From UHGV virus genome UHGV-1512937: a stretch of DNA of 36,416 nucleotides; one strand, 5' to 3'. The notes under the pieces are model-generated. The model was not told the origin of the DNA and did not search any database. It saw only the letters and a program-made list of their open reading frames with translations. The first letter of the stretch is position 1. Each line of letters opens with the position of its first letter. A program made the position numbers and the translations under genes. Positions 2,486 to 32,245 of this stretch are shown here, piece by piece. The DNA is from a virus.

Positions 2486-2758
2486 TCAGTGCTTCCGGTC
2501 GACGGTGATGTGCAGGCCGCCTTCTGCAGTAGTTTCCATCCGGTACGGCACCTCATGCTCTGCCGTGTGGGTGAGTGTGTTCACCAGTACCTGCAGGGCA
2601 GCCTCCTTTCCGTTGGTCGCCACAATAGCCTGCGCGGCCATGCTGATTAATTTGGTTAATACCAGCCGGATATGGTTGGGGGTTTTACAACCACATTCAC
2701 GGATATATTCCGCGACAATTTCGCGGGTCCGTTTTTCTGCGTCCTGTGGGGTAATCAT
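2486..2758 (-). CDS. hypothetical early protein
   Basis: 90 aa ORF in the same minus-strand operon, protein-like composition; no recognisable motif. Confidence 0.45.
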   Translation of the reverse strand: MITPQDAEKRTREIVAEYIRECGCKTPNHIRLVLTKLISMAAQAIVATNGKEAALQVLVNTLTHTAEHEVPYRMETTAEGGLHITVDRKH

Positions 2759-2949
2759 TGCGCGTCCTCCCTGTCAGGGCGGAAGAATTCCATGACGGGC
2801 ACGTCCGCCGAAAAATGCTGGCTGCAGTACGGACAGACCAGGGTGACACGTACTGCAGGTACGTGGTACTTACCGGACATCACGGCGATGGCGCTGTGAA
2901 AACGCAGGGCTGTTATATCCCTCTCGCACTGAATACATTTAAATATCAT
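2755..2949 (-). CDS. small zinc-ribbon-like protein
   Basis: 64 aa ORF with two Cys pairs (CIQC ... CPYC); ATGA overlap with the downstream gene. Confidence 0.45.
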   Translation of the reverse strand: MIFKCIQCERDITALRFHSAIAVMSGKYHVPAVRVTLVCPYCSQHFSADVPVMEFFRPDREDAQ

Positions 2950-3046
2950 AATTTAATTCTCCTCTGTTTCCGGCGTGCAGAAGCCCACGGCGCTGACGCC
3001 GGAATAAAAAAGAAAATGTTTTTATTAAATAATTAACGTGGTGTGT

Positions 3047-3577
3047 TTACTGCACATCCTGCTCAAAAGGAATTATTGAAAAATCCTCAATATCACTTTT
3101 TATGGTAATACCGGGAATATTTTTCACGGCCTCTTTTTCATTCAGAATGGCATCTTTATTTATTTCCTCTTTTACACGAATAAAGCGCTCAAGCCCCAGA
3201 CGTCTCAGTAGTTCAATAACATTATCCGCTCCACGGATACTGACTGATGGCGGACGGTTTCGCCACTGCACCTCGCCGGTGGTGAGGTTAGCGAACTTCA
3301 CCTTCCCGTTGCCGGTCAGTTCATCACGGTGTGCCTCACACCATGTCTGAATACCGGACTGCAGTTCGGCCATGCGTTTTTTTAGGCTCTCGGTGAGCGG
3401 GGCATAACGTGCGGTGATATCGCCAATGGCGTCATTCATTTCTGTTTCAGCCCTGACCAGTTCACGTTGTGCGTCACCGAGCAGTCTGATTCCCTCAATG
3501 ACCTCTTCGCGTGTCCCCGGTACCCAGAGTGCCGCTGCGGACTTGATACGTTTTGCCCCTTTTGTACTTTTTGCCAT
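3047..3577 (-). CDS. gam: Gam-like host-nuclease inhibitor (Mu Gam family, Ku-like DNA end-binding protein)
   Basis: 176 aa; N-terminal KRIKSAAALWVP, internal ETEMNDAI, WCEAHRDELT and RPPSVSIRG, and C-terminal IEDFSIIPFEQ closely follow the Mu Gam sequence as I remember it. Confidence 0.85.
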   Translation of the reverse strand: MAKSTKGAKRIKSAAALWVPGTREEVIEGIRLLGDAQRELVRAETEMNDAIGDITARYAPLTESLKKRMAELQSGIQTWCEAHRDELTGNGKVKFANLTTGEVQWRNRPPSVSIRGADNVIELLRRLGLERFIRVKEEINKDAILNEKEAVKNIPGITIKSDIEDFSIIPFEQDVQ

Positions 3578-3876: not shown

Positions 3877-5043
3877 TTAAACCCCTTTGACAACGTCAGC
3901 GTTGACCTGTGGAACCCCGATTTCAGCGGCCAGATTCATGGCGGCTATCACCAGGTTACTGACGGCCAGCGGATACAACAGGCTGACCATATTTTTACGA
4001 TGACTTCCCGGATTGCTCAGGCGGGCACGTATGGCATCCACTGCACTGGCGTCCATAATGTCCGTCAGTTGTTTACCTGCCCGTTGCAGTTTGAACGTCA
4101 GAAACTCTTCAAGGTTATTGTCCAGAGGCAGAAGTTCGACCACCTCACAGCGCTGAACGACTTCACGGACTTCCATATTGCGTTCAGACAGTTTTGTCGC
4201 CAGTTCCGGCTGGCCAATCAGCACGATGGACAGCAGTTTTTTGAAACCGGACTCCAGCTCAAAAAAGCGTTTGAGGTGTTTCAGTGTCGGAATGGGCAGA
4301 CTGTGGGCCTCCTCAATCACCAGAACGTGGCTGAACCCCGCCTGGCTGCTGTCTTTCAGGACGCGATGCAACTGGCGAAAGCGGGCGTCCTGACTGCGTC
4401 TGATGCTTTCCAGTGGTGCGATGGTACTGATAATGGCTTCGGCAATAGCTGCTGCCTTCAGGGTTTTCCCTTTCACATCGTTGTCTTCCATAGCGATGAT
4501 GTATGGCTCGATAACAATTACCGGCGCATTCTCGCGGTTGATACGTTCAGTCAGGTCGCGGCGCAGCGTGGATTTACCCGCACCGGACTCACCGATGACG
4601 GCCATAAACCCACCATGACGGGCTGTCTGGTACAACGCCTCACGCACGTAGCGAATGTCCGGGGTGGTGAACACATCATCAGAACCCTGCATGGCTTCGT
4701 CGGCGAACGGGTCACGGAAAAGACCAAACGCTTTTTTGGTTGCCGGGAATAACACCTGTTTTTTGAGTAACATATTCTCTTCCTCACTGAGGCTCGTTTT
4801 ATCTGTGGTACCCGCTGTACGGGGAGTGGCCGCGCCCTGTACAGCATCAAAACTCTTCGCTGTATCAATCCCCTGACTTTCCAACCAGGACGCAAGACGC
4901 CGGCGCACTTCTCCGGGGCTGGTGCGGGGCCACGCGTTATGATTCACAATCTGGGCCAGCGTGGCCTCAGAAACATCGACAGCTCTCGCCACCACCGCCT
5001 GTGGAATACGGGCCTCTTTCAGTTGCTGCTTCAGTACCAGCAT
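3877..5043 (-). CDS. transposition ATPase / target DNA activator (MuB-like AAA+ protein)
   Basis: Walker A GESGAGKST and Walker B VLVIEEAH in the translation; sits immediately downstream of the transposase. Start set at the internal ATG (MLVLKQQLKE) preceded by GAGGAGG rather than the ORF-track start at 5070. Confidence 0.8.
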   Translation of the reverse strand: MLVLKQQLKEARIPQAVVARAVDVSEATLAQIVNHNAWPRTSPGEVRRRLASWLESQGIDTAKSFDAVQGAATPRTAGTTDKTSLSEEENMLLKKQVLFPATKKAFGLFRDPFADEAMQGSDDVFTTPDIRYVREALYQTARHGGFMAVIGESGAGKSTLRRDLTERINRENAPVIVIEPYIIAMEDNDVKGKTLKAAAIAEAIISTIAPLESIRRSQDARFRQLHRVLKDSSQAGFSHVLVIEEAHSLPIPTLKHLKRFFELESGFKKLLSIVLIGQPELATKLSERNMEVREVVQRCEVVELLPLDNNLEEFLTFKLQRAGKQLTDIMDASAVDAIRARLSNPGSHRKNMVSLLYPLAVSNLVIAAMNLAAEIGVPQVNADVVKGV

Positions 5044-5053
5044 GTTTCCCTCC

Positions 5054-6823
5054 TCAGTTGCCGTTAACAATGCTGATAACGCTGCTGCGGGCCGGCGTGG
5101 TCAGCGTGGCCATTACTTCATCCAGTGCGGCTTCCGGTACGCCGTCCGGGTACTGTGCCGTTAACTGGCGGTAATGTTCCGGCGTCCAGGTAAGGCCGTC
5201 GGCGCTGAACTTATCGCGCAGGGCTTTCGCGGCCTCCACATGAGTCATGGGACGTTGTTCAGTGCGCGGTCTGCGTACATCAGAGACCTGACCGCGCTTC
5301 GGTATACAGGCCGGAAGTGTGGCGTCATCAATATGTTTATACGGGTCAAGCCGCCCGCCGAACGGCAGCGCCTTCGCCTTGCGTGCGGCAGCTGCATCTG
5401 CGGCGTTGTCTGTACCGGTGACCAGCGCTTCGGTTTCTTTTGCCGCCGTCTGTGCCGGTGTTTCCGGCAGGGCTTTGTAACTTTCGCCAAATACCGCCGC
5501 GCCTTCAGCAAAGCCAAACTCGTTCTTTCTGACCTCTTCGACCAGGAAGAACGTCTCGTGGCCGTCCTCACCGGTCAGAACCACCTGTGCCACATCGCTG
5601 CGCCATGGGTTACGGGTAATCATCAGTTTTTCACCAACCAGTACGCCCGGTACCGTTGATACGTCAAATTCAGTGCCCCGGAACGAGACACGAAGTTTTG
5701 GCGTGACTTTGCGGAGTTCTGGTGTCGCCACAGCCAGTTCACGGCATACCTCAACGGAAGGCGCTTTTTTCAGCTGCTCAGCAGTAATCTTCAGCCAGAT
5801 ATCCGTGCGGGTTTTACCGTGGCGGCTGTGAACAGCTGTTGCGTTAAAGTGGCTACGCCATTTCGCGGCCAGCGCGTTGAGTTCTTCCAGACTGTGAACC
5901 GGCCGGAATTTCAGACCCGGCTCCAGCTTGCGTTCGATAATGTCACGCGCCTTTTCCACCTGTCCGGTGGCGCGGGCGTTATGCGGCTTGTGCGCTATCA
6001 GGTCGATGCCCAGTGAGCGGCACATGTTTTTCGTCATACCCGCGGTGTTTGCCGAGCCGGGGTCGAGATAGAGTATTTTCGGCACGCCGTGCAGCACGTC
6101 TGCGCCGCCACGCTCCTGCATGGCGTTGATAAGCACAGAACACAGGTTCTCACCGGATTCCGCACCCGTCACATACTCAACGTAAATCCAGCCGCTGGCA
6201 TGGTCGGTAATCTCGTAACTCCACACGCGGTCACTGGCGATACGGGCAAGGTTAGCGGGTTTATTCTTGTAGAACTTCGCGCTGTCCATCACCTGCAGCC
6301 CTTTGTGTCCATTGCTCAGGTAGTAAAGCGTGCAGAGCGAGGCATCAATCTGCCAGACGTGATTGGGATGCAGACTGGCCACTTCGGTATGCGGCGCAGG
6401 GGCATCCAGTTGTTCCGGGTGCAGGCCATAGTTACGCAAGGCACGACTGATGGCATCTTCGGACAACGGGAAAAACTCACCGGTGGTTTCATCTGTTCTG
6501 CCTGCGGAGATAAAGCCGTTAGCCCGCAGGGTTTCCACTGCATCTGCGATGGAATAGAGACGCTTACCGTTCTTGCGGGTGGCCTCACGCAGTGTGGCAG
6601 ATATCAGCGCGGCTTCGTCGCGGGTCAGGGCGCTGCGCCCGGCATCGGCGCGTTTTTTGCGTTTATCAGTCACAGATACCTCCTTCAGCCTGCGCAGCAG
6701 AGTGGCGCGGGACATGCCAAGTTCAGCACAGGCAGCGTCGTATATTGCACCGCGTTTACCATGCCCCGCGTCACGTGCCGCGCGGGCGACATAAACCAGT
6801 CGTTCAGTCAGGGCAGCATTCAT
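5054..6823 (-). CDS. DDE transposase, integrase-core (rve) fold, of the BcepMu/Tn552-like type
   Basis: 589 aa; candidate catalytic triad in WQIDAS, ITDHASGW and GQVEKA with spacing typical of retroviral-integrase-fold transposases; GGAGG upstream of the ATG. Much shorter than, and not alignable by eye to, canonical Mu MuA. Confidence 0.85.
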   Translation of the reverse strand: MNAALTERLVYVARAARDAGHGKRGAIYDAACAELGMSRATLLRRLKEVSVTDKRKKRADAGRSALTRDEAALISATLREATRKNGKRLYSIADAVETLRANGFISAGRTDETTGEFFPLSEDAISRALRNYGLHPEQLDAPAPHTEVASLHPNHVWQIDASLCTLYYLSNGHKGLQVMDSAKFYKNKPANLARIASDRVWSYEITDHASGWIYVEYVTGAESGENLCSVLINAMQERGGADVLHGVPKILYLDPGSANTAGMTKNMCRSLGIDLIAHKPHNARATGQVEKARDIIERKLEPGLKFRPVHSLEELNALAAKWRSHFNATAVHSRHGKTRTDIWLKITAEQLKKAPSVEVCRELAVATPELRKVTPKLRVSFRGTEFDVSTVPGVLVGEKLMITRNPWRSDVAQVVLTGEDGHETFFLVEEVRKNEFGFAEGAAVFGESYKALPETPAQTAAKETEALVTGTDNAADAAAARKAKALPFGGRLDPYKHIDDATLPACIPKRGQVSDVRRPRTEQRPMTHVEAAKALRDKFSADGLTWTPEHYRQLTAQYPDGVPEAALDEVMATLTTPARSSVISIVNGN

Positions 6824-6826
6824 TGG

Positions 6827-7738
6827 TTATGCCTCCAGCCCGTTAATCTGTGGCGTCGGCTCAGTCAGCCATGAAGGCGCGACATCGCCTGTTGGCTCGT
6901 CCGGCAGGTCAAATGTGGAGCGCAGGCTACGCGCTGTGCTTTCCAGTTGACAGACCAGGCCTGCCATGAAGTCTCTGGGGGTATCAATCATGTTTTCAGC
7001 ACAATATGCGCACAGTGTCTCAAAAGCGCTGGACAGTCGAACGGCGATGGCAGATTCCGCCTCAACCGCTAACGCGGTCACTTCCGCCCGCAGTTTCTTC
7101 ACCTCTTCATCAGGCTCAGGTGGCTGAATACGGGATTTCTTCTCCAGTCTGGTGGAGAGTGAGTCTATTTTTTCATTTTTATCGGCGAGAACACGCTGTT
7201 GTGCTGCGTTGGTTTCGCGCGCTTCACGCAGGGCCTGACGCAATTCACGTACTGACATGCGATCAACATCGTCAAGCGTCATGCCGGCAACTGTGCCGCC
7301 GTCGGCCAGTTCGGCAAGCTCTTCGTCGTCTTCTGTCATTAATTCGAAAAGTTTGGCTTTTCCCAAATGTGCCAACGTTGGCACATTTGGTTTCAGCGCC
7401 GGGGATAAGTATTTTGTCGATGCTTGCATCATTCTCACAGATGTCCGGTATGCCAGCCCCAACTCACTTTCAAGAATCTTTATAAACTCCCCGTGTGGTT
7501 CATTTTCCTTAAGGATTATCAGCCGCTTACCTGCCTCCAGCATGGCCTCAGCGCTCTGTGCCATATAAAAGCGTGCCTCATGGACAACACGATCGCGCTC
7601 ATAGGGCAGACCATCGCCGAACTGTTGCATGATTTCCATGCGATGCTGTGTCATGGCGTTTAGACTGACATTGAGATCATCCGACAGCGGTACCTCGACG
7701 TTCAGTTCAGTGCTAACCGGTGATTTGGTGCGTCCCAT
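6827..7738 (-). CDS. conserved early-region protein, coiled-coil rich; function unknown
   Basis: 303 aa ORF directly upstream of the transposase in the same operon; acidic and helix-rich. Confidence 0.55.
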   Translation of the reverse strand: MGRTKSPVSTELNVEVPLSDDLNVSLNAMTQHRMEIMQQFGDGLPYERDRVVHEARFYMAQSAEAMLEAGKRLIILKENEPHGEFIKILESELGLAYRTSVRMMQASTKYLSPALKPNVPTLAHLGKAKLFELMTEDDEELAELADGGTVAGMTLDDVDRMSVRELRQALREARETNAAQQRVLADKNEKIDSLSTRLEKKSRIQPPEPDEEVKKLRAEVTALAVEAESAIAVRLSSAFETLCAYCAENMIDTPRDFMAGLVCQLESTARSLRSTFDLPDEPTGDVAPSWLTEPTPQINGLEA

Positions 7739-7748
7739 TGATTACTCC

Positions 7749-8057
7749 TTACAAACGACTACCTGAAATAACACGTTGGTTGATTTCGTTAATGCGATCC
7801 TGTGCACGTGCCATCTCGTTACTGTGGGCCATGGCGATCTGCAGCAACTGGATGCCTGGTGCGAAACGCCCGTTTTCCAGTTTCAGGGCTAGTCCCTCTT
7901 CGATAAGGGTATTGAGTGCTCGATTGATGTTCGCCGGGGACTCATCTAGGGCTGATGCCAGTTCACCGTTAGAAACACCGTTCAGAGAGTGACCGCGTAG
8001 AGCTTTGAGTACACGTAGGATGCGGGTCCCGGAACTGGAGATATTTACTTTACTCAT
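7749..8057 (-). CDS. putative winged-helix DNA-binding protein
   Basis: Translation from the internal ATG at 8057 (MSKVNISSSGTRILRVLKALRGHSLNGVSNGELASALDESPANINRALNTLIEEGLA) resembles an IclR/MarR-like winged HTH. The longer start at 8120 would overlap the Ner-like gene; neither start has a strong RBS. Confidence 0.5.
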   Translation of the reverse strand: MSKVNISSSGTRILRVLKALRGHSLNGVSNGELASALDESPANINRALNTLIEEGLALKLENGRFAPGIQLLQIAMAHSNEMARAQDRINEINQRVISGSRL

Positions 8058-8109
8058 GTCACATTTCCATTTTTGCAATATGTGATAACCTGTTGCATAT
8101 ATGGAAAAT

Positions 8110-8298
8110 TTATGCCGCATTTGACGTGGGTTTTAATCCCAGCTTTACGGCAATTTCATGGGCTTTGCCGTAACGAGCTTTGGTCTGTCCATTGAGAACA
8201 CGATAGACCTCATTGCGGCTGTAGCCGTGTTCTTCGGCCCAGCGGGTAAACGTGATACCACGCTGACGGAAGAGAGTTTTAACTTGTTCGGAAGTCAT
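8110..8298 (-). CDS. Ner/Cro-like small DNA-binding regulator, first gene of the early operon
   Basis: 62 aa; HTH-like GYSRNEVYRVLNGQTKARYGKAHEIAVKLGL; AAGGAG 7 nt upstream; divergent from the repressor gene, as ner is from c in Mu. Confidence 0.55.
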   Translation of the reverse strand: MTSEQVKTLFRQRGITFTRWAEEHGYSRNEVYRVLNGQTKARYGKAHEIAVKLGLKPTSNAA

Positions 8299-8384
8299 TG
8301 TTGTCTCCTTTGTTGATGCAATGATGTTTGTTTTATATGTGATAGATTATGAGAACCATTGTTCTCATTGTCAATGAGGTTTAT
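8299..8384. promoter_or_regulatory. divergent early/repressor control region with a 6-4-6 inverted repeat (GAGAAC CATT GTTCTC, 8351-8366); candidate operator
   Basis: AT-rich 86-bp interval between the Ner-like gene and the preferred repressor start; inverted repeat read directly from the sequence. No promoter hexamers were matched. Confidence 0.35.
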
Positions 8385-8810
8385 GTGAATTTTGATTCTC
8401 TTTGCGCGTCGCGGTTCAAAGCTGAGCGTTCGCGGTTATCACTCAAGCAGGCTGAAGTAGCAGCCCTTTGTGGCGTTTCAAGAGAAATGTGGGGGAAATA
8501 TGAACGAGGGGTTGCAGTTCCCGGAGGTGAGTTACTTGCAGCCTTTGCAAGAATTGGGGCCAACGTACAGTTCATTCTTACTGGGGAATCATCAGGTATA
8601 ACTTTATCACGTGATGAAATGGAGTTACTTCAGCACTACCGGCAAGCACCGTTACAAGTCAAAGGTTCAGTTTTGTCGGCATTGACGACTGGCTCCTCCA
8701 GAGAACGGGCGGAACAGGTTATTCATGGAGATGTTCTGGGGAATGTTATCAAAGGTAACGTAACCATAGGAACAGGTGGAATAATGAACAAAAATACAAA
8801 GAGAAAATGA
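8385..8810 (+). CDS. XRE-family HTH repressor (putative prophage lysogeny repressor)
   Basis: HTH LSLKQAEVAALCGVSREMWGKYERG near the N-terminus; GTG at 8385 has GAGG 5 nt upstream, while the in-frame ATG at 8349 lacks an RBS; divergent from the early operon. Confidence 0.6.
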   Translation: MNFDSLCASRFKAERSRLSLKQAEVAALCGVSREMWGKYERGVAVPGGELLAAFARIGANVQFILTGESSGITLSRDEMELLQHYRQAPLQVKGSVLSALTTGSSRERAEQVIHGDVLGNVIKGNVTIGTGGIMNKNTKRK

Positions 8811-9793
8811 GTAAAGAGAAGCAAACAGTTAACGGAGATGTGGGTAACGTTGTCAGCGGTGATGTTACCATTCATAACTATTCTGCTGACATACTTCCCT
8901 CTGCCCAGCAACCAATTTCGTTGCTGCAAAAACGCGATTTACACAGATTGATGGATGAATTGGTTGATCTGGGGGAAAGTAAGCGCGAACTATGGATGAC
9001 GATCCACACGAAACTTAATACCAAAACAGTTAATGAAATGACTGCGGCTGATTATCATGGTGCGGTTGAGATCCTCCAGAGATATGCACAACAGATCCAG
9101 AATATGAAGGACTGTAATCTTCTGGTCAGCAAAATAATGGTGCTTACTGACCCTAGGTATCGTCTTGACCGTGACAGATACTGTCTGAAGCATTTCGGTA
9201 CAACCCATCTTAAAGGCCTGGACAAAGAGCAGTTGCAGGCTGTGTTTGGTTATTTTGATGATCTGCTGAATATTCGTGATGAGAGTAAAACTCTATCACC
9301 TCCATCGGACAGCGGGGCAAAATCAGTCGCGACTGTACCAACCAGAAGCCGGAAGCCTCATGTAGTAGTGTTGGGGGGAGCGTTAGTTCTTGTCGCAATA
9401 TTTTTCGTGGGAATGATTGTGTTCGCTGGTAAATGGGGAAATGCTAAAGCAGTAGCATCTACTGAAACCAGCGTTTTTAACATTAAAACCAACGACAAAA
9501 TAATAGAAGATTCCATCCCAGCATTACGCAGCATGTTTCCAGGGTTAAATAAGTACTCAGATGATTTCCATTCGGTTTCAAGCTACAAGCAAAAATCGGG
9601 CTGGCATACCCTTAAATTCACGGTGTCTACACAGGCAATAATACCTGAATCTTATGGTGTTAAAGGGAAAACTTGTTACATCAACATAAACCCCGATGGT
9701 CGTTATGCCCGTGTTTTGACCGCCCCATGTAGAGCTCTATTACTTGACCAACAAAACACTCCAGATAGTAAATATCGTTATATTTTGAAATAG
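8807..9793 (+). CDS. bitopic membrane protein of unknown function (accessory 'moron' gene A)
   Basis: 328 aa; ATG overlaps the repressor stop (ATGA at 8807-8810); single predicted TM helix (HVVVLGGALVLVAIFFVGMIVFAG) separating a ~185 aa N-terminal domain from a ~120 aa C-terminal domain; visibly AT-richer than flanking phage genes. Confidence 0.6.
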   Translation: MSKEKQTVNGDVGNVVSGDVTIHNYSADILPSAQQPISLLQKRDLHRLMDELVDLGESKRELWMTIHTKLNTKTVNEMTAADYHGAVEILQRYAQQIQNMKDCNLLVSKIMVLTDPRYRLDRDRYCLKHFGTTHLKGLDKEQLQAVFGYFDDLLNIRDESKTLSPPSDSGAKSVATVPTRSRKPHVVVLGGALVLVAIFFVGMIVFAGKWGNAKAVASTETSVFNIKTNDKIIEDSIPALRSMFPGLNKYSDDFHSVSSYKQKSGWHTLKFTVSTQAIIPESYGVKGKTCYININPDGRYARVLTAPCRALLLDQQNTPDSKYRYILK

Positions 9794-9813
9794 AAAATAA
9801 CTGCGAGGCTATT

Positions 9814-10425
9814 ATGGGGCTAATTAAACGATATAGAACAGATTATCCGAACCAAGTACATCAACTTTCTGTTGCTGTTTCAAAGCATTATTATGCGGGA
9901 GTTGATGGATTGCTTAAGTACCAGAAAAAACCATTTGATATAAAACTTAGCAATGCAAGTAAAACTGGAAAAGATCATTTACTAGTCTATTCGTTACGCG
10001 ATCACTACAGTGGTTTGTTTTATATAGAATTGGCATTTCTTTCTACACCACAACCTATAACAGCTTTTTTGGGAAGGGCATGGAGGCCAAAGGAAGATAA
10101 CGTGTTACAGGGTCTTCCTGATATGCTGATGATCCCCAAAACTGTAGAAGATGAGTTCCCTAACGTATGTAATGCCGTTTATAACCAAGGAGTTGATCTT
10201 TTAAAAGTAACCAGCGGTTTTCAGAGTGGAGGGCTTATCGCCATACGAGCGGTAGAGGAAGATCTTAAATTCTACACAAATACTCCTATAGCACGAGTTC
10301 GTGAGGTTGCGGTTAAAACATGCAGATACAATGCTAATGATATCGCCCGAACCAATAAAGAAACAAAGCAAGAGATGTGGTTACGAAACGTCGGTCAGAT
10401 AGATATACCTTCTCCAGATTTTTGA
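9814..10425 (+). CDS. soluble protein of unknown function (accessory 'moron' gene B)
   Basis: 203 aa ORF 20 nt downstream of gene A on the same strand; AT-rich; no recognisable motif. Confidence 0.55.
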   Translation: MGLIKRYRTDYPNQVHQLSVAVSKHYYAGVDGLLKYQKKPFDIKLSNASKTGKDHLLVYSLRDHYSGLFYIELAFLSTPQPITAFLGRAWRPKEDNVLQGLPDMLMIPKTVEDEFPNVCNAVYNQGVDLLKVTSGFQSGGLIAIRAVEEDLKFYTNTPIARVREVAVKTCRYNANDIARTNKETKQEMWLRNVGQIDIPSPDF

Positions 10426-10687
10426 AACCTGAAATCACGGTGTCGACGGTTCATTCTGACGCATCATTTATTCTCGTCAGTTGCCTCATATTCGTGCGTG
10501 CTAGGAAACATCGGCCAGAATATGTCTGGCATGGCGGCGTTTACAACCAATCCATGGAGCGATGGGGAATGTCTGCATTTTCATAATCTGTAACCCTTTT
10601 ATAATTATAAAAAATATGGCAGGCTAGTCTGGTCTCGCGAGACTGACTGAACCTCGGTCGGCTCACAGTGCATTCCTGTGGGGCGAT

Positions 10688-10719
10688 GACCAGCCCGGAG
10701 TTCGGGTACCGGGCTGGTC
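10688..10719. other. perfect 11-bp-stem hairpin (GACCAGCCCGG / CCGGGCTGGTC, 10-nt loop); candidate terminator or structured RNA
   Basis: Inverted repeat read directly from the sequence, followed by GTTCTTTC; lies in a ~400-bp non-coding gap; a 12-bp palindrome GTCTCGCGAGAC sits at 10632-10643. Confidence 0.4.
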
Positions 10720-10834
10720 GTTCTTTCACTGTCAGAGTTCAGAGTGAAGTTTTGAGATACATGATTTCTATTAACGCGATTTACTGGATGCATTACCTAC
10801 GTGCAGTGTTTGTTCGATAAGGATTGTTTTCTGA

Positions 10835-11410
10835 ATGGGAACGTATTACACACTTGATTCCGCTAGTCGTCTGCCTTCGCCTTGTCATGTAATTACCGGA
10901 AAATACGAGCCTGAAATGCCAGAACTGGCCGCTTTTCTTCATCAGATGTATCCCAATGGCCTTTCGAGTCACGGGTATAACTATCTCTATAACCCCGGCC
11001 CTAAAATGGAAGATGACAGTGGAATCAGCAGAAGTCTGCTGGTCGGTCTGGTGTTTGAGTTAGTTCGCCGTAGCCATTTTCCTGATAAACCTTCCCGCTA
11101 TCAGTCACTGTTTGCCTGTCAGCATCTGAGTGAAGTCAGGAAGTTCAGGGAATTACTGGCTGATGAGAGAGGCGAAGACGAAATAAGAACGGCACCGATA
11201 TATGAAGTCATCACAAATGAGCAGGTGCATCGCGGAGATATGAGGTTATTGAACAGTGATTGCCCGGTGCTGGAACTGTATCACCGTGCTTGGCTTTACT
11301 GGTCGGGTGAAGCAGCCCCAGTTAAGACTGGTGAGGACGAACCGTTCTGGGAACTGCTGATTCCGCTTCCAGTATTCGTTGGTCGAAGGATAACTGAATC
11401 GCAGGATTAG
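10835..11410 (+). CDS. hypothetical protein
   Basis: 191 aa ORF with AAGGA upstream of the ATG; its 3' end overlaps a convergent minus-strand ORF by 89 bp. Confidence 0.4.
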   Translation: MGTYYTLDSASRLPSPCHVITGKYEPEMPELAAFLHQMYPNGLSSHGYNYLYNPGPKMEDDSGISRSLLVGLVFELVRRSHFPDKPSRYQSLFACQHLSEVRKFRELLADERGEDEIRTAPIYEVITNEQVHRGDMRLLNSDCPVLELYHRAWLYWSGEAAPVKTGEDEPFWELLIPLPVFVGRRITESQD

Positions 11411-29218: not shown

Positions 29219-30360
29219 ACAGTACTGCGCAAGCCACATCAGCGTTAACCGGCGTCAGCGATGTGCTGACGCCGGTATTCACTCTGTGGTATTTGCAGAA
29301 AAACATCACCTCTGATATCGCGCCTTATGTCACCCGTGTGGTCTGGAGCGATAACATCAAAAATGAGTCCGATACCATTGAGGTGGAGCTGGACGACACC
29401 GATGGCCGCTGGCTGGATAAGTGGTATCCGGGCAAGGGTGACACGCTGACGCTGAAAATGGGTTATCAGGGCGAGAAACTGCTGTCCTACGGTACATTCT
29501 CAATAGACGAGATCGAAGTGAGTTCGCCCGCGTCCGTTGTCGCTATCCGTGGGGTGGCCACCTCGGTTAACAGTGCTCTGCGGACTAAATCCAGCCGTGG
29601 TTTTGAGAACACCACGCTGGCAGCTGTTGCGGGTCGGATTGCCAGAAAGCACCGGCTGAAACTGGTGGGCAGCATTGAGTCCATCAGAATCGACCGGGTG
29701 ACCCAGTATGCTGAAACCGACGTGGGTTTTCTGCGCCGGCTGGCCAGCGAGTATGGTTATGCAGTGAAAGTGGTCAGTGACCAGTTGATTTTTTCTCATC
29801 TGGCCACATTGCGCAGTCAGGAGCCGGTCAGGCAGTTAAAACCGCAGGATGTGGCCCACTTTTCCCTGCGTGACACCATCAACCGGGTCTATAAATCTGC
29901 AAAGGTAAAACACCAGAAAAGCAGCAGTAAAAAACTGATCGTCTACGAAGCTGATGGTGGTACCCGTGAAAGCGACAAAAAGCTCAAAGGCGGTAAGGTT
30001 ACCAGCGCTGACTCACTTAAAGTTAACAGCCGCGTCAGCGACCCGGACAGTGCCCGGATTAAAGCGGATTCAGCACTGGCCAGACATAACGAATACCAGC
30101 AGAACGGCTCCCTGACGCTGACGGGAACGCCTCAACTGACAGCAGGCAACAAAATTGAACTGGTGGGCTTTGGACAATTATCCGGTCCATGGCTGATAAT
30201 CACTGCCCGCCATGCGTTTGAGCGTAACAGCGGCTACACCACAGAGCTGGAAGTGGCACGGGGGCCAGTCACAAGAGGGAAAAAACAAAAAACTCAGAAA
30301 CTCACGGTTTATCACCCGGATGGCAGTACATCGACGGTGATTAAGGAGAAGAAAAAATGA
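29206..30360 (+). CDS. baseplate hub / late control gene D-like protein (P2 gpD, Mu gp44 family)
   Basis: 384 aa; size and order after the tape measure and U/X genes. Confidence 0.75.
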   Translation: MAEINSTAQATSALTGVSDVLTPVFTLWYLQKNITSDIAPYVTRVVWSDNIKNESDTIEVELDDTDGRWLDKWYPGKGDTLTLKMGYQGEKLLSYGTFSIDEIEVSSPASVVAIRGVATSVNSALRTKSSRGFENTTLAAVAGRIARKHRLKLVGSIESIRIDRVTQYAETDVGFLRRLASEYGYAVKVVSDQLIFSHLATLRSQEPVRQLKPQDVAHFSLRDTINRVYKSAKVKHQKSSSKKLIVYEADGGTRESDKKLKGGKVTSADSLKVNSRVSDPDSARIKADSALARHNEYQQNGSLTLTGTPQLTAGNKIELVGFGQLSGPWLIITARHAFERNSGYTTELEVARGPVTRGKKQKTQKLTVYHPDGSTSTVIKEKKK

Positions 30361-30869
30361 CTGGTGTCACCCGCCAGGTCGGTACGGTCAGTGCCGTTGA
30401 TGCCGACAGGGTTCAGGCCCGCGTTCGTCTGCCTGAATGCGATAATCTGCGCACAAACTGGCTTAACGTGCTGCAGCGCAATACCCAGGATAACAAGGAT
30501 TACTGGCTCCCTGACGTGGGGGAGCAGGTTGAGGTGCTGCTCGATGCCAACGGCGAGGATGGTGTTATTCTGGGCGCGGTGTACTCAGACGTCGATAAAC
30601 CGCCGTTCGGTGATAAAAACGTCCGGGGCACGAAGTACGCTGATGGCGCGGAGTTCAGTTATGACCGCGCGACCCATACGCTGACGGTCAAAGGAGGTAT
30701 CGAGCATGTGGTGATCGAGGTTGCAGTGGGTATTAGTCTGAAAGGGAAAACCATTGATTTGACAGCTGACACTATCATGGTGAACGGCAATCTTGAAATC
30801 AAAGGGAGTACCCATGCGACTGGTAACATATTTGCAGATGGACAGAATTCCAATCATCACTCTCACTAA
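30357..30869 (+). CDS. baseplate spike protein (gpV-like)
   Basis: 170 aa; ATGA-coupled to the gpD-like gene; size and position. Confidence 0.7.
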   Translation: MTGVTRQVGTVSAVDADRVQARVRLPECDNLRTNWLNVLQRNTQDNKDYWLPDVGEQVEVLLDANGEDGVILGAVYSDVDKPPFGDKNVRGTKYADGAEFSYDRATHTLTVKGGIEHVVIEVAVGISLKGKTIDLTADTIMVNGNLEIKGSTHATGNIFADGQNSNHHSH

Positions 30870-30882
30870 TTTTTCAAGTATG

Positions 30883-30917
30883 TGACTCCATTTCCTCTCC
30901 CGCGGATATGATAGAAT
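30883..30917 (+). promoter_or_regulatory. candidate sigma70-type promoter for the inserted gene (TGACTC, 18-nt spacer, TATGAT)
   Basis: Hexamers read from the AT-rich 81-bp gap between the gpV-like gene and the inserted gene; GGGGA RBS 6 nt before the ATG at 30951. Confidence 0.25.
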
Positions 30918-30950
30918 TTTTTAATTAACACTAATTTGGCGGGGACTTAA

Positions 30951-31826
30951 ATGCGGTTATCAAGATCCTTATGTAAAGTAGTTGGCGATGTCATTGCTAA
31001 CTCAGGCTCTCATGCAGCTTTAGATACGTTATTTCTTACTTCGGGAGCACCAGGAAACCCTCCGGCAGGATCTCATAGTACAAAATGGAAAGACTGGTTA
31101 TTTCTTGCAGGGCAAGATCCAGATACAGATAGTCTGGCAGTTCTGGGCGGAGTAATTGAGGAGTTTATGGATTTACCTCCAAAAGAAGGTACTCCCGAAT
31201 ATGCAGAATGGAAGGAAAAACGAGACAGAATTGAAGCTGTGTTACAAGAGAATGGACTTAGATATTATCGTTTTGGTCGAGTGTTGCCTGAAGGCCACAT
31301 CCCGTCACACAATATGGATTACCCAGAGACCATAATTACTTATCAACAGCCAGTAATGCCAGAAAAAGTTGAGAACTTACTGGAAAGGCTGGTCAAAGGC
31401 TTACAGCGAGCAATGCATCCACTTACTCATAGGCGAAAAGGAAGCCAGTCATTATCTTTTAGCAATGAATATGACGTGCAAGACCTTCTCCATGCATTGC
31501 TCAGACCATGGGTTCAGGACATCCGCCCAGAAGAGTTTACTCCAAGTTACGCTGGTTCAAGTACTCGAATGGATTTTTTGTTACCTGCGCATAAATTAGT
31601 ACTGGAAACCAAAATTGTTCGTGATCGTTCTCATGCAAAGAAAATCGGCGATGAACTTATTATCGATATAGAGCATTATCGTCGGCACTCTGATTGCAAA
31701 AATCTCTGGTGTGTCATCTACGATCCGAACCAGCTTATTACTAATTCTGAGGGGCTGAAATCTGATCTTGAGGGGAAGAGAGTCTCTAAAGACGGAGAAC
31801 TTATCGTCAAGGTTTTCGTAATTTAA
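30951..31826 (+). CDS. AT-rich inserted gene; protein with C-terminal PD-(D/E)xK-like motif (putative nuclease, candidate defence/abortive-infection gene)
   Basis: 291 aa; much lower GC by eye than flanking baseplate genes; C-terminal EYDVQDLLHALL ... RMDFLLPAHKLVLETKIV matches the E ... D ... ExK layout of restriction-endonuclease-fold nucleases. Confidence 0.55.
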   Translation: MRLSRSLCKVVGDVIANSGSHAALDTLFLTSGAPGNPPAGSHSTKWKDWLFLAGQDPDTDSLAVLGGVIEEFMDLPPKEGTPEYAEWKEKRDRIEAVLQENGLRYYRFGRVLPEGHIPSHNMDYPETIITYQQPVMPEKVENLLERLVKGLQRAMHPLTHRRKGSQSLSFSNEYDVQDLLHALLRPWVQDIRPEEFTPSYAGSSTRMDFLLPAHKLVLETKIVRDRSHAKKIGDELIIDIEHYRRHSDCKNLWCVIYDPNQLITNSEGLKSDLEGKRVSKDGELIVKVFVI

Positions 31827-31897
31827 CAAACGTATCAATAACTCCTTTTTAAATCCCTTTAATATCGTTCTTTTCTTACTGGGGCAATACTGCCCCC

Positions 31898-32245
31898 ATG
31901 AAAACGACCTCAGTATTCTGGCAACCGGCTCTGCAGGCTCCCGGCGAAATCGTCCGGGGGCTGGATGATATCCAGCAGTCCATCCAGATCATCCTGCGGA
32001 CTCCCCGCGGCAGCGACCCGCATCGCCCAGAGTTCGGCAGCAATCTGCACCTTTATATCGACTGGCCTGTCGACCGGGCCATTCCGCATGTGGTTCGCGA
32101 ATCCGTCGATGCCATCAGGCGCTGGGAACCCCGCTGCCAGCTTATGTCGGTTAAACCCGCCGTCGACGGCGAACATCTTACGCTCCGGGTGAGCTGGAAA
32201 GGCTCAGACGGACAACCCCGTACTCAGGAACTGCTATGGCGCTGA
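31898..32245 (+). CDS. baseplate wedge protein (gpW / gp25-like)
   Basis: 115 aa; size and position before the gpJ-like gene; ATG sits in a GGGGCA-ATAC-TGCCCC hairpin and has no obvious Shine-Dalgarno. Confidence 0.65.
   Translation: MKTTSVFWQPALQAPGEIVRGLDDIQQSIQIILRTPRGSDPHRPEFGSNLHLYIDWPVDRAIPHVVRESVDAIRRWEPRCQLMSVKPAVDGEHLTLRVSWKGSDGQPRTQELLWR

Follow-up and report, generated by a model that had tools for sequence, protein, structure and literature searches.

UHGV virus genome UHGV-1512937, a prophage sequence of 36,416 nucleotides (referred to here as the window), was found to carry a low-GC cassette with a single gene between its baseplate genes gpV and gpW. We consider it probable that this cassette was acquired horizontally and is an autonomous gene for anti-phage defence residing in a V-W hotspot, and that its product is a single-protein sensor-effector acting by abortive infection. 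The protein, here termed X-REase (291 aa; WP_001371051.1), is composed of an N-terminal domain designated X, a variable linker and a C-terminal nuclease domain (Table 1). The evidence carrying this conclusion is the insertion itself, an intact predicted active site, the joining of X to five kinds of effector, the lack of a conserved partner gene, the defence-type neighbourhoods of the homologues, and the alternative defence cargo that occupies the same junction in other phages. A first-pass annotation of the window had described the gene as an AT-rich insertion coding for a stand-alone nuclease of the defence or abortive-infection type, and this description was supported in its main features by the solitary state of the gene, its predicted catalytic residues and the company its homologues keep.

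A foreign gene is inserted at the gpV-gpW junction

The prophage belongs to the BcepMu-like transposable phages and resides in Escherichia coli. Based on Pfam matches, the order of its late genes is a gpD-like hub gene, gpV, the insert gene and gpW, followed by Baseplate_J and Tail_P2_I genes, and the 291-codon open reading frame (ORF) reported earlier between the V and W genes was recovered with an ATG start. The nearest phage records are those of Escherichia phage PhiKM (genus Bcepmuvirus) and Klebsiella phage KP12, in which the flanking baseplate genes have counterparts but the insert has none. In PhiKM, V and W are adjacent by annotation as well as by alignment of the junction; thus, the gene does split two baseplate genes that are neighbours in relatives, as had been proposed. 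Alignment with gene-less relatives showed that the insertion lies downstream of the V stop codon and upstream of a conserved pre-W segment about 50 bp long. Apart from a short T-rich similarity, the cassette ends showed no direct or inverted repeats, and therefore no transposon-like or att-like boundaries were recognized.

The base composition of the insert differs sharply from that of its surroundings, in agreement with the first-pass annotation. G+C content of the cassette is 0.417 compared to 0.562 for the late region (z = -5.9 relative to windows of the same size), with the profile dropping over the gene from about 0.55 to about 0.42, and G+C at third codon positions is 0.34 in the insert gene compared to 0.58-0.68 in genes D, V, W and J. 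Occurrence of the gene is also limited. A V-W region was found in 636 of 5426 complete E. coli genomes, and the complete low-GC insert was present in 12 of these 636. The remaining regions include a few with copies disrupted by insertion sequence (IS) elements and otherwise have a V-W gap of about 55 bp (most V-W spans are about 915 bp). Among IMG/VR viral contigs, 73 with a related W gene were compared, and about 62 of them likewise have 57-81 bp between V and W. The contrary outcome, a gene conserved in all relatives with ordinary GC content, was not seen, and the insert gene is confirmed as a compositionally foreign and patchily distributed insertion.

Three independent IS insertions were found to break the 876-bp gene in different enterotoxigenic E. 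coli strains: IS2 in B7A (window-equivalent position ~31668), IS100 (with IS2) in 503025 (~31386) and ISCro1 in ATCC 43896 (~31098). Such disruptions fit a gene that is costly to its carrier.

The C-terminal domain retains a PD-(D/E)xK active site

Residues 143-286 of the protein match Pfam REase_DpnII-MboI (PF18742) over model positions 2-147 of 150 with a score of 160 bits (E-value 4e-47; curated cut-off 27 bits). The E...D...ExK arrangement noted in the first-pass annotation lies inside this match and was found to be real, with D208 and E219-T-K221 (plus E173) invariant in 43 homologues. An alpha/beta restriction-endonuclease core fold was likewise found, as the motif had led that annotation to expect. 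The sole solved structure identified by sequence for the nuclease domain was EcbAgaN (PDB 23wq; E-value 3.6e-7), and in the alignment D208, E219 and K221 correspond to D298, E309 and K311 of EcbAgaN. Taken together, these comparisons support the assignment of the C-terminal domain as a predicted PD-(D/E)xK DNase with an intact catalytic motif.

Profile searches with the complete protein returned matches to the nuclease part. Among PADLOC models, Aga_Helical-REase models alone were matched (from model positions 212-270), the PHROG match was phrog_29450, a model with no assigned function, and NCBIfam profiles gave no match. The linker separates two much better conserved regions: mean pairwise identity among 42 aligned homologues is 0.71 for X, 0.28 for the linker and 0.79 for the nuclease domain, and residues 116-133 of the linker were modelled with a predicted local distance difference test score (pLDDT) below 50. 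Invariant positions of X include H21, K45, W49 and G66.

Domain X is joined to five kinds of effector

No match to X was found in Pfam even at an E-value of 10 or less, in NCBIfam, in PADLOC, or among Protein Data Bank (PDB) sequences at an E-value of 0.3 or less. An exhaustive HMMER search detected X in 327 representative clusters. Forty-four longer members were examined for the domain beside X, and an Abi_C HEPN domain was found in 22 of them, with REase_DpnII-MboI, TIR_2, PNP_UDP_1 and CAP12/Pycsar TIR domains in others. Five effector kinds in all (HEPN, TIR, PNP nucleosidase, CAP12-TIR and REase) are thus joined to X, which is always positioned directly upstream of the effector domain. Rarer architectures were AbiJ_NTD3-X-TIR and Hsp70-SBD-X-HEPN. 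The PADLOC AbiJ model is matched by the X-HEPN proteins, for the most part through their HEPN region; in one such relative (P0213), model positions 101-280 of 281 were matched. One X-HEPN gene, annotated as an 'abortive infection family protein', lies at 3992-4810 of the P2-like Escherichia phage ESSI2_ev040 (NC_049393.1), directly downstream of the integrase gene, a site that we take to be the position of the P2 old-type defence hotspot.

A structure of X alone was predicted from an alignment of 55 diverse sequences (pLDDT 93.8, predicted TM-score 0.86). The model has five helices and a C-terminal beta-hairpin that follows helix 5. Its best structural matches were the CARD domains of trypsin-like proteases, with modest scores and about 8% identity.

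Homologues are solitary and lie in variable islands

Clustering at 90% identity yielded 3375 homologue clusters. The best 120 of the 3375 are 67-100% identical over the full length and come from Enterobacterales, Pseudomonas, Burkholderiales and others, with E. coli, Salmonella and Yersinia among the hosts. Further members were found in Acidobacteria, Planctomycetes, Thermodesulfobacteriota and one archaeal metagenome bin.

The neighbourhoods of these homologues vary. In Permianibacter the gene adjoins a Shedu SduA_C nuclease gene, in Sulfuritalea a RelA_SpoT gene and a PIN7 gene, and in Enterobacter a YobI-ATPase gene, while in a second E. coli context it lies within an integrase/AlpA/Rep element. 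In Pseudomonas aeruginosa it forms part of a 4013-bp cassette (5314-9326) that is 100% identical in two different chromosomal contexts. The genes of the P. aeruginosa cassette code for a 234-aa protein without assignment, a 483-aa trypsin-like protease, X-REase and a 104-aa protein without assignment; no X-like region was detectable in the protease. Upstream and downstream neighbours from five contexts had no mutual similarity, which argues that no conserved partner is hidden among them, and within 6-8 kb of the gene none of the loci showed a conserved neighbour or another copy of X. Neither the window nor the homologue loci examined contained an Argonaute gene. Thus, the homologues are solitary genes in small variable or defence-type islands and satellite-like elements.

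Four tail modules of Pectobacterium colocasium carry the gene (78% identical), in each case at the V-W junction. A 9.2-kb block of this genome (4558-13740, from gpU to a tail-fibre assembly gene and including the X-REase gene) occurs at four chromosomal sites with 99.8-100% identity, and the tail genes upstream of it are 75-93% identical between sites or absent. This pattern indicates recent homogenization or module duplication, or possibly an assembly artefact; since the identity extends over the entire block, the four copies represent multiplicity of the module, with no gene-sized conversion tract.

Many database entries of the family are labelled 'transposase'. This label was rejected, as no transposase domain was found and the multi-copy state in Pectobacterium is explained by the identical 9.2-kb tail module; the labels are probably a legacy misannotation and may stem from the IS elements inside the gene. 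A separate protein sharing the nuclease domain only was found on plasmids, with 319 records (mostly E. coli, Klebsiella and Enterobacter) encoding it behind a different N-terminus (for example NZ_CP059838.1 22653-23126). The similarity covers residues 133-289 at 42-46% identity. Of the matching plasmids, 224/321 are predicted to be conjugative, and the frequent 'malate dehydrogenase' label of this protein is probably a misannotation of another REase_DpnII-MboI effector.

The V-W junction accommodates alternative cargo

Comparison of the junction among relatives, a check recommended in the first-pass annotation, revealed other genes at this site. In a distant phage group (W 55% identical; loci L104-L109) the V-W junction is filled by four different low-GC genes on the opposite strand, and a sibling phage of the group has an empty junction. 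One of the four matches PD-T7-4, which is a validated defence gene, over its full length (E-value 6e-62). Since unrelated low-GC genes that include PD-T7-4 alternate at the junction, we regard it as a cargo hotspot that attracts defence genes. The three further minus-strand genes (gap ~2572-3500 in IMG/VR contigs L104-L107) code for a protein of 267 aa and for proteins of 228 and 217 aa with hydrophobic N-termini. They had no significant Pfam match and no PADLOC match at all, and all three are candidate new defence genes.

This arrangement resembles the P2 old/tin/fun loci and the P4 hotspots, in which a fixed site in a conserved phage module holds unrelated low-GC cargo that alternates among relatives. 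The V-W site differs from these in that it lies inside the baseplate operon of BcepMu-like phages. Orientation of the cargo also varies, with X-REase co-oriented with the late genes and the cargo of the distant group, PD-T7-4 included, on the opposite strand. No description of a gpV-gpW hotspot in BcepMu-like phages was found in the searchable literature.

The cassette appears to carry its own expression signals

The first-pass annotation had assigned the gene its own promoter and ribosome-binding site. The ribosome-binding site was recovered as a purine-rich Shine-Dalgarno-like sequence in front of the ATG, with equivalents in the other enterobacterial contexts. The promoter claim stood in part. 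A generic sigma-70 scan identified no promoter in the 81-bp upstream spacer, and its one internal promoter-like site (31241-31268) falls below chance expectation. By contrast, inspection of the spacer revealed a candidate extended -10 element, TGATAGAAT, which is the sole match to TGNTAKAAT in the whole window. Equivalent elements, TGTTAGAAT, TGATATAAT and TGGTATAAT (TGnTA(T/G)AAT), precede the gene by 29-34 nt in Pectobacterium, in the E. coli integrase/AlpA element and in the Enterobacter island, three contexts whose flanks are otherwise unrelated. Since the extended -10 element is unique in the window and its equivalents travel with the gene, the cassette appears to bring its own promoter. 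A terminator scan detected none on either side of the gene, that is, between V, the gene and W. With the gene co-oriented with the late operon and the pre-W segment retained, late read-through transcription is also expected.

X-REase differs from known systems that share its parts

The overall layout of X-REase belongs to a class predicted by Anantharaman et al. (2013), who described five AbiJ-NTD domains fused to the AbiJ HEPN domain or to REase, TIR, kinase and other toxin domains and proposed that the N-terminal domain (NTD) recognizes an invader component and restrains the toxin (PMC3710099). Like AbiJ-type proteins, X-REase is the product of one gene of about 280-290 codons in which a non-catalytic N-terminal domain of about 115 aa precedes a toxic domain that targets nucleic acid, and X itself is fused to Abi_C HEPN in half of the longer relatives sampled. 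When compared by description only, X fits AbiJ-NTD5 (~115 aa, mostly helical, AbiJ and TIR fusions, E. coli prototype). X-REase differs from AbiJ in having a PD-(D/E)xK DNase domain instead of a HEPN RNase domain, and the protein matched neither Abi_C nor the PADLOC AbiJ model.

The nuclease domain has its closest characterized counterpart in EcbAgaN, which serves as the nuclease of BPAN, a long-B Argonaute system from E. coli. The D-EVK motif of EcbAgaN is essential for DNase activity, its nuclease domain is toxic alone and is auto-inhibited by the N-terminal domain via a flexible linker, and assembly into an octamer yields a non-specific DNase (PMC13535254). X-REase has the same layout of N-terminal domain, flexible or variable linker and nuclease domain, and the catalytic residues align. 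By contrast, the N-terminal domains are unrelated in sequence and the domain of AgaN that binds prokaryotic Argonaute (pAgo) was not matched in X-REase. With no Argonaute near the gene, activation cannot rely on a guide-loaded pAgo.

The same Pfam nuclease family also serves as a swappable defence effector in the REase variant of Detocs and in PDP4 and TOXO of the DefensePredictor supplement, with partners or N-terminal domains that differ from those of X-REase. With the DpnII/MboI restriction-modification enzymes, X-REase has only the 150-aa catalytic core in common, its N-terminal 140 residues matching nothing in Pfam. Judged from sequence, X-REase therefore falls outside AbiJ, as it has no HEPN domain, outside BPAN, as the Argonaute is missing and the N-terminal domain is another one, and outside DpnII/MboI restriction-modification, as there is no methylase and the core alone is shared. 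No mention of WP_001371051 was found in the searchable literature, and WP_001371051.1 was not among the DefensePredictor supplement entries searched. Thus the architectural class was predicted in 2013 and defence cargo is expected in prophages, whereas the X-REase family is uncharacterized and X is uncatalogued.

Proposed mode of action and alternative explanations

Because of the analogy to EcbAgaN, and because X is also joined to suicide effectors of four other kinds, we infer that X-REase combines sensor and effector in one protein. In the lysogen, the candidate extended -10 promoter would drive the gene, and X would hold the C-terminal DNase inactive. Infection by another, heterologous phage would supply a cue, upon which the nuclease domains would come together, probably by oligomerization. 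The assembled nuclease would then degrade DNA non-specifically, so that phage replication is stopped at the cost of the cell.

Several observations weigh against this proposal. With an average identity of 71% across homologues from several phyla, X is more conserved than is usual for sensors directed at fast-evolving phage proteins; this points to a conserved cue, or to a role in regulation or assembly only, instead of a fast-evolving phage protein as target. The promoter is a candidate recognized by its sequence motif alone. As the gene is co-oriented with the late operon, it is expected to be transcribed also in the lytic cycle of its own prophage, a poor fit for a suicide nuclease if the host phage can trigger it. 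The IS insertions may merely mirror the preference of these elements for AT-rich targets. The search of defence profiles proposed by the first-pass annotation reached the nuclease part through the Aga_Helical-REase models, but no PADLOC, NCBIfam or PHROG model gives the X-REase protein a function.

Among other explanations, direct and non-abortive restriction is unlikely. Here the protein would be a solitary endonuclease, either type II-like or modification-dependent (type IV-like), with X binding DNA and directing the nuclease to foreign DNA, and the cell would not kill itself. The nuclease family is named after DpnII and MboI, and in one version of this explanation a DpnII/MboI-like enzyme would be tolerated through Dam methylation of GATC in E. 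coli; a DNA adenine methylase gene is present in the related phage PhiKM. As a rule, type IV enzymes are solitary and join an N-terminal DNA-binding domain to a C-terminal PD-(D/E)xK domain, and the beta-hairpin after helix 5 of X could resemble a wing. However, no methyltransferase gene was found in the cassette or next to homologues in about ten contexts, the DpnII N-terminal domain is lacking, and X is fused also to enzymes that do not act on DNA. A role in the lytic cycle, with late expression serving to degrade host or competitor DNA, to process DNA or to exclude superinfecting relatives while the lysogen is left unprotected, is quite improbable. It would account for the orientation and the read-through expected from the late operon (no terminator detected, pre-W segment retained), but most related phages function without the gene, which occurs outside prophages in chromosomal islands, has its own promoter-like element in every enterobacterial context, and has abortive-infection proteins as its domain relatives.

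Least probable of all, and in our view highly so, is a free-standing homing endonuclease or selfish gene that cuts empty V-W junctions and copies itself into them through recombinational repair, without benefiting the host. Homing endonuclease genes classically occupy this kind of place, between conserved phage structural genes, and X-REase is encoded by a lone low-GC nuclease gene; the 'transposase' labels are numerous, and the same junction is occupied in E. coli and Pectobacterium (78% protein identity; all four tail modules of one genome). The Pectobacterium copies, however, sit in the identical 9.2-kb block, that is, they reflect copying of whole modules, and the labels are probably erroneous as discussed above. 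Homologues 70-83% identical lie in unrelated contexts (the integrase/AlpA element, the Enterobacter island, and Pseudomonas, Permianibacter and Sulfuritalea chromosomes) with flanks that do not align and hence no common target. In addition, the N-terminal domain is common to effectors that do not act on DNA, and just ~2-3% of E. coli prophages with the V-W junction are occupied.

The defence assignment would have consequences beyond this prophage. The X-REase family is large yet without functional annotation or a PADLOC 2.0 or NCBIfam model, and its N-terminal domain is absent from Pfam. If defensive, it would extend E. coli prophage immunity by a single-gene system that is common, and would offer a tractable model (291 aa, an E. 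coli host and clear catalytic residues) for the control of interchangeable toxins by AbiJ-type NTDs. The death-fold resemblance of X and the V-W hotspot, both of which appear to be undescribed, are two more leads open to direct testing.

The predicted fold of domain X shows a modest resemblance to death-like folds

The likeness of X to bacterial CARD and death-like domains is a resemblance of predicted fold, and is kept apart from homology because the scores are modest, identity is about 8%, and the CARD/death-like domains of gasdermin systems (PDB 8ss1 and 9frr) and the EAD/bDLD adaptors have six helices compared to five plus a beta-hairpin in X. No sequence or profile link of X to the death, CARD, bDLD or EAD families was found.

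In EAD-type systems, death-like adaptors come in pairs within one locus (PMC8195603). An adaptor pair of this type was rejected for X-REase, as no second X-bearing protein occurs in the loci scanned: among 7072 ORFs of the window and loci L001-L036, the X hidden Markov model matched the gene itself only. Comparison of X with the trypsin-like protease of the Pseudomonas cassette and its 234-aa neighbour gave an hhalign probability below 1%, and no STAND/NLR ATPase or protease partner for X-REase was found at the locus.

A more far-reaching idea, which we regard as speculative and rather doubtful, is that X is a genuine prokaryotic death-fold (CARD-like) module that operates without an NLR/STAND or protease partner and that the V-W junction is a new defence hotspot. 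In stand-alone proteins, X would hold the toxic effector (DNase, HEPN RNase, TIR or ATP nucleosidase) inactive, polymerize homotypically on a conserved infection cue and activate the effector by induced proximity. If this were true, X would tie the AbiJ class, 30 years old and mechanistically unexplained, to death-domain signalling and would represent a minimal one-protein 'signalosome'. In the searchable literature, no paper linking AbiJ NTDs with a death fold was found.

Coordinates and further features of the window

Table 1. Features of the X-REase cassette and its flanks in UHGV-1512937 (window positions).
Feature	Position	Strand	Basis or remarks
Inserted low-GC cassette, 979 bp	30870..31848	+	gpV stop codon to conserved pre-W intergenic segment; alignment with insert-less relatives
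X-REase protein, 291-aa ORF, WP_001371051.1	30951..31826	+	ATG start; full-length homologues
Domain X, aa 1-115	30951..31295	+	Five helices and beta-hairpin; predicted sensor/regulatory (AbiJ-NTD-like) module
Variable linker, aa 116-140	31296..31370	+	Low identity, low pLDDT
PD-(D/E)xK nuclease domain (predicted), aa 141-291	31371..31823	+	Pfam REase_DpnII-MboI
Catalytic core (predicted)	31572..31613	+	D208 31572-31574; E219 31605-31607; K221 31611-31613
Candidate extended -10 element TGATAGAAT	30909..30917	+	33 nt upstream of start codon; sequence motif
Shine-Dalgarno-like GGGGA	30941..30945	+	5 nt before ATG; read from sequence
Left flank: baseplate spike gene gpV	30357..30869	+	Pfam Phage_base_V
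Right flank: conserved pre-W segment and gpW	31849..32245	+	Pfam GPW_gp25 (gpW ORF 31898-32245)

Two other features were observed in the window. A perfect stem-loop, GGGGCA-ATAC-TGCCCC, at 31881-31896 stops 1 nt 5' of the gpW start codon and is kept in insert-less relatives and in Pectobacterium. No obvious Shine-Dalgarno sequence was seen there, and the stem-loop may be a translational control element for gpW. A second low-GC block (8000-11400; GC content 0.38-0.47 compared to ~0.57) lies at the early/immunity end of the prophage and includes an HTH_31 repressor-like ORF (8349-8810), a DUF2441 ORF (10835-11410) and two ORFs of 328 aa (8807-9793) and 203 aa (9814-10425) without Pfam or PADLOC match. 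This block may be further accessory or defence cargo.

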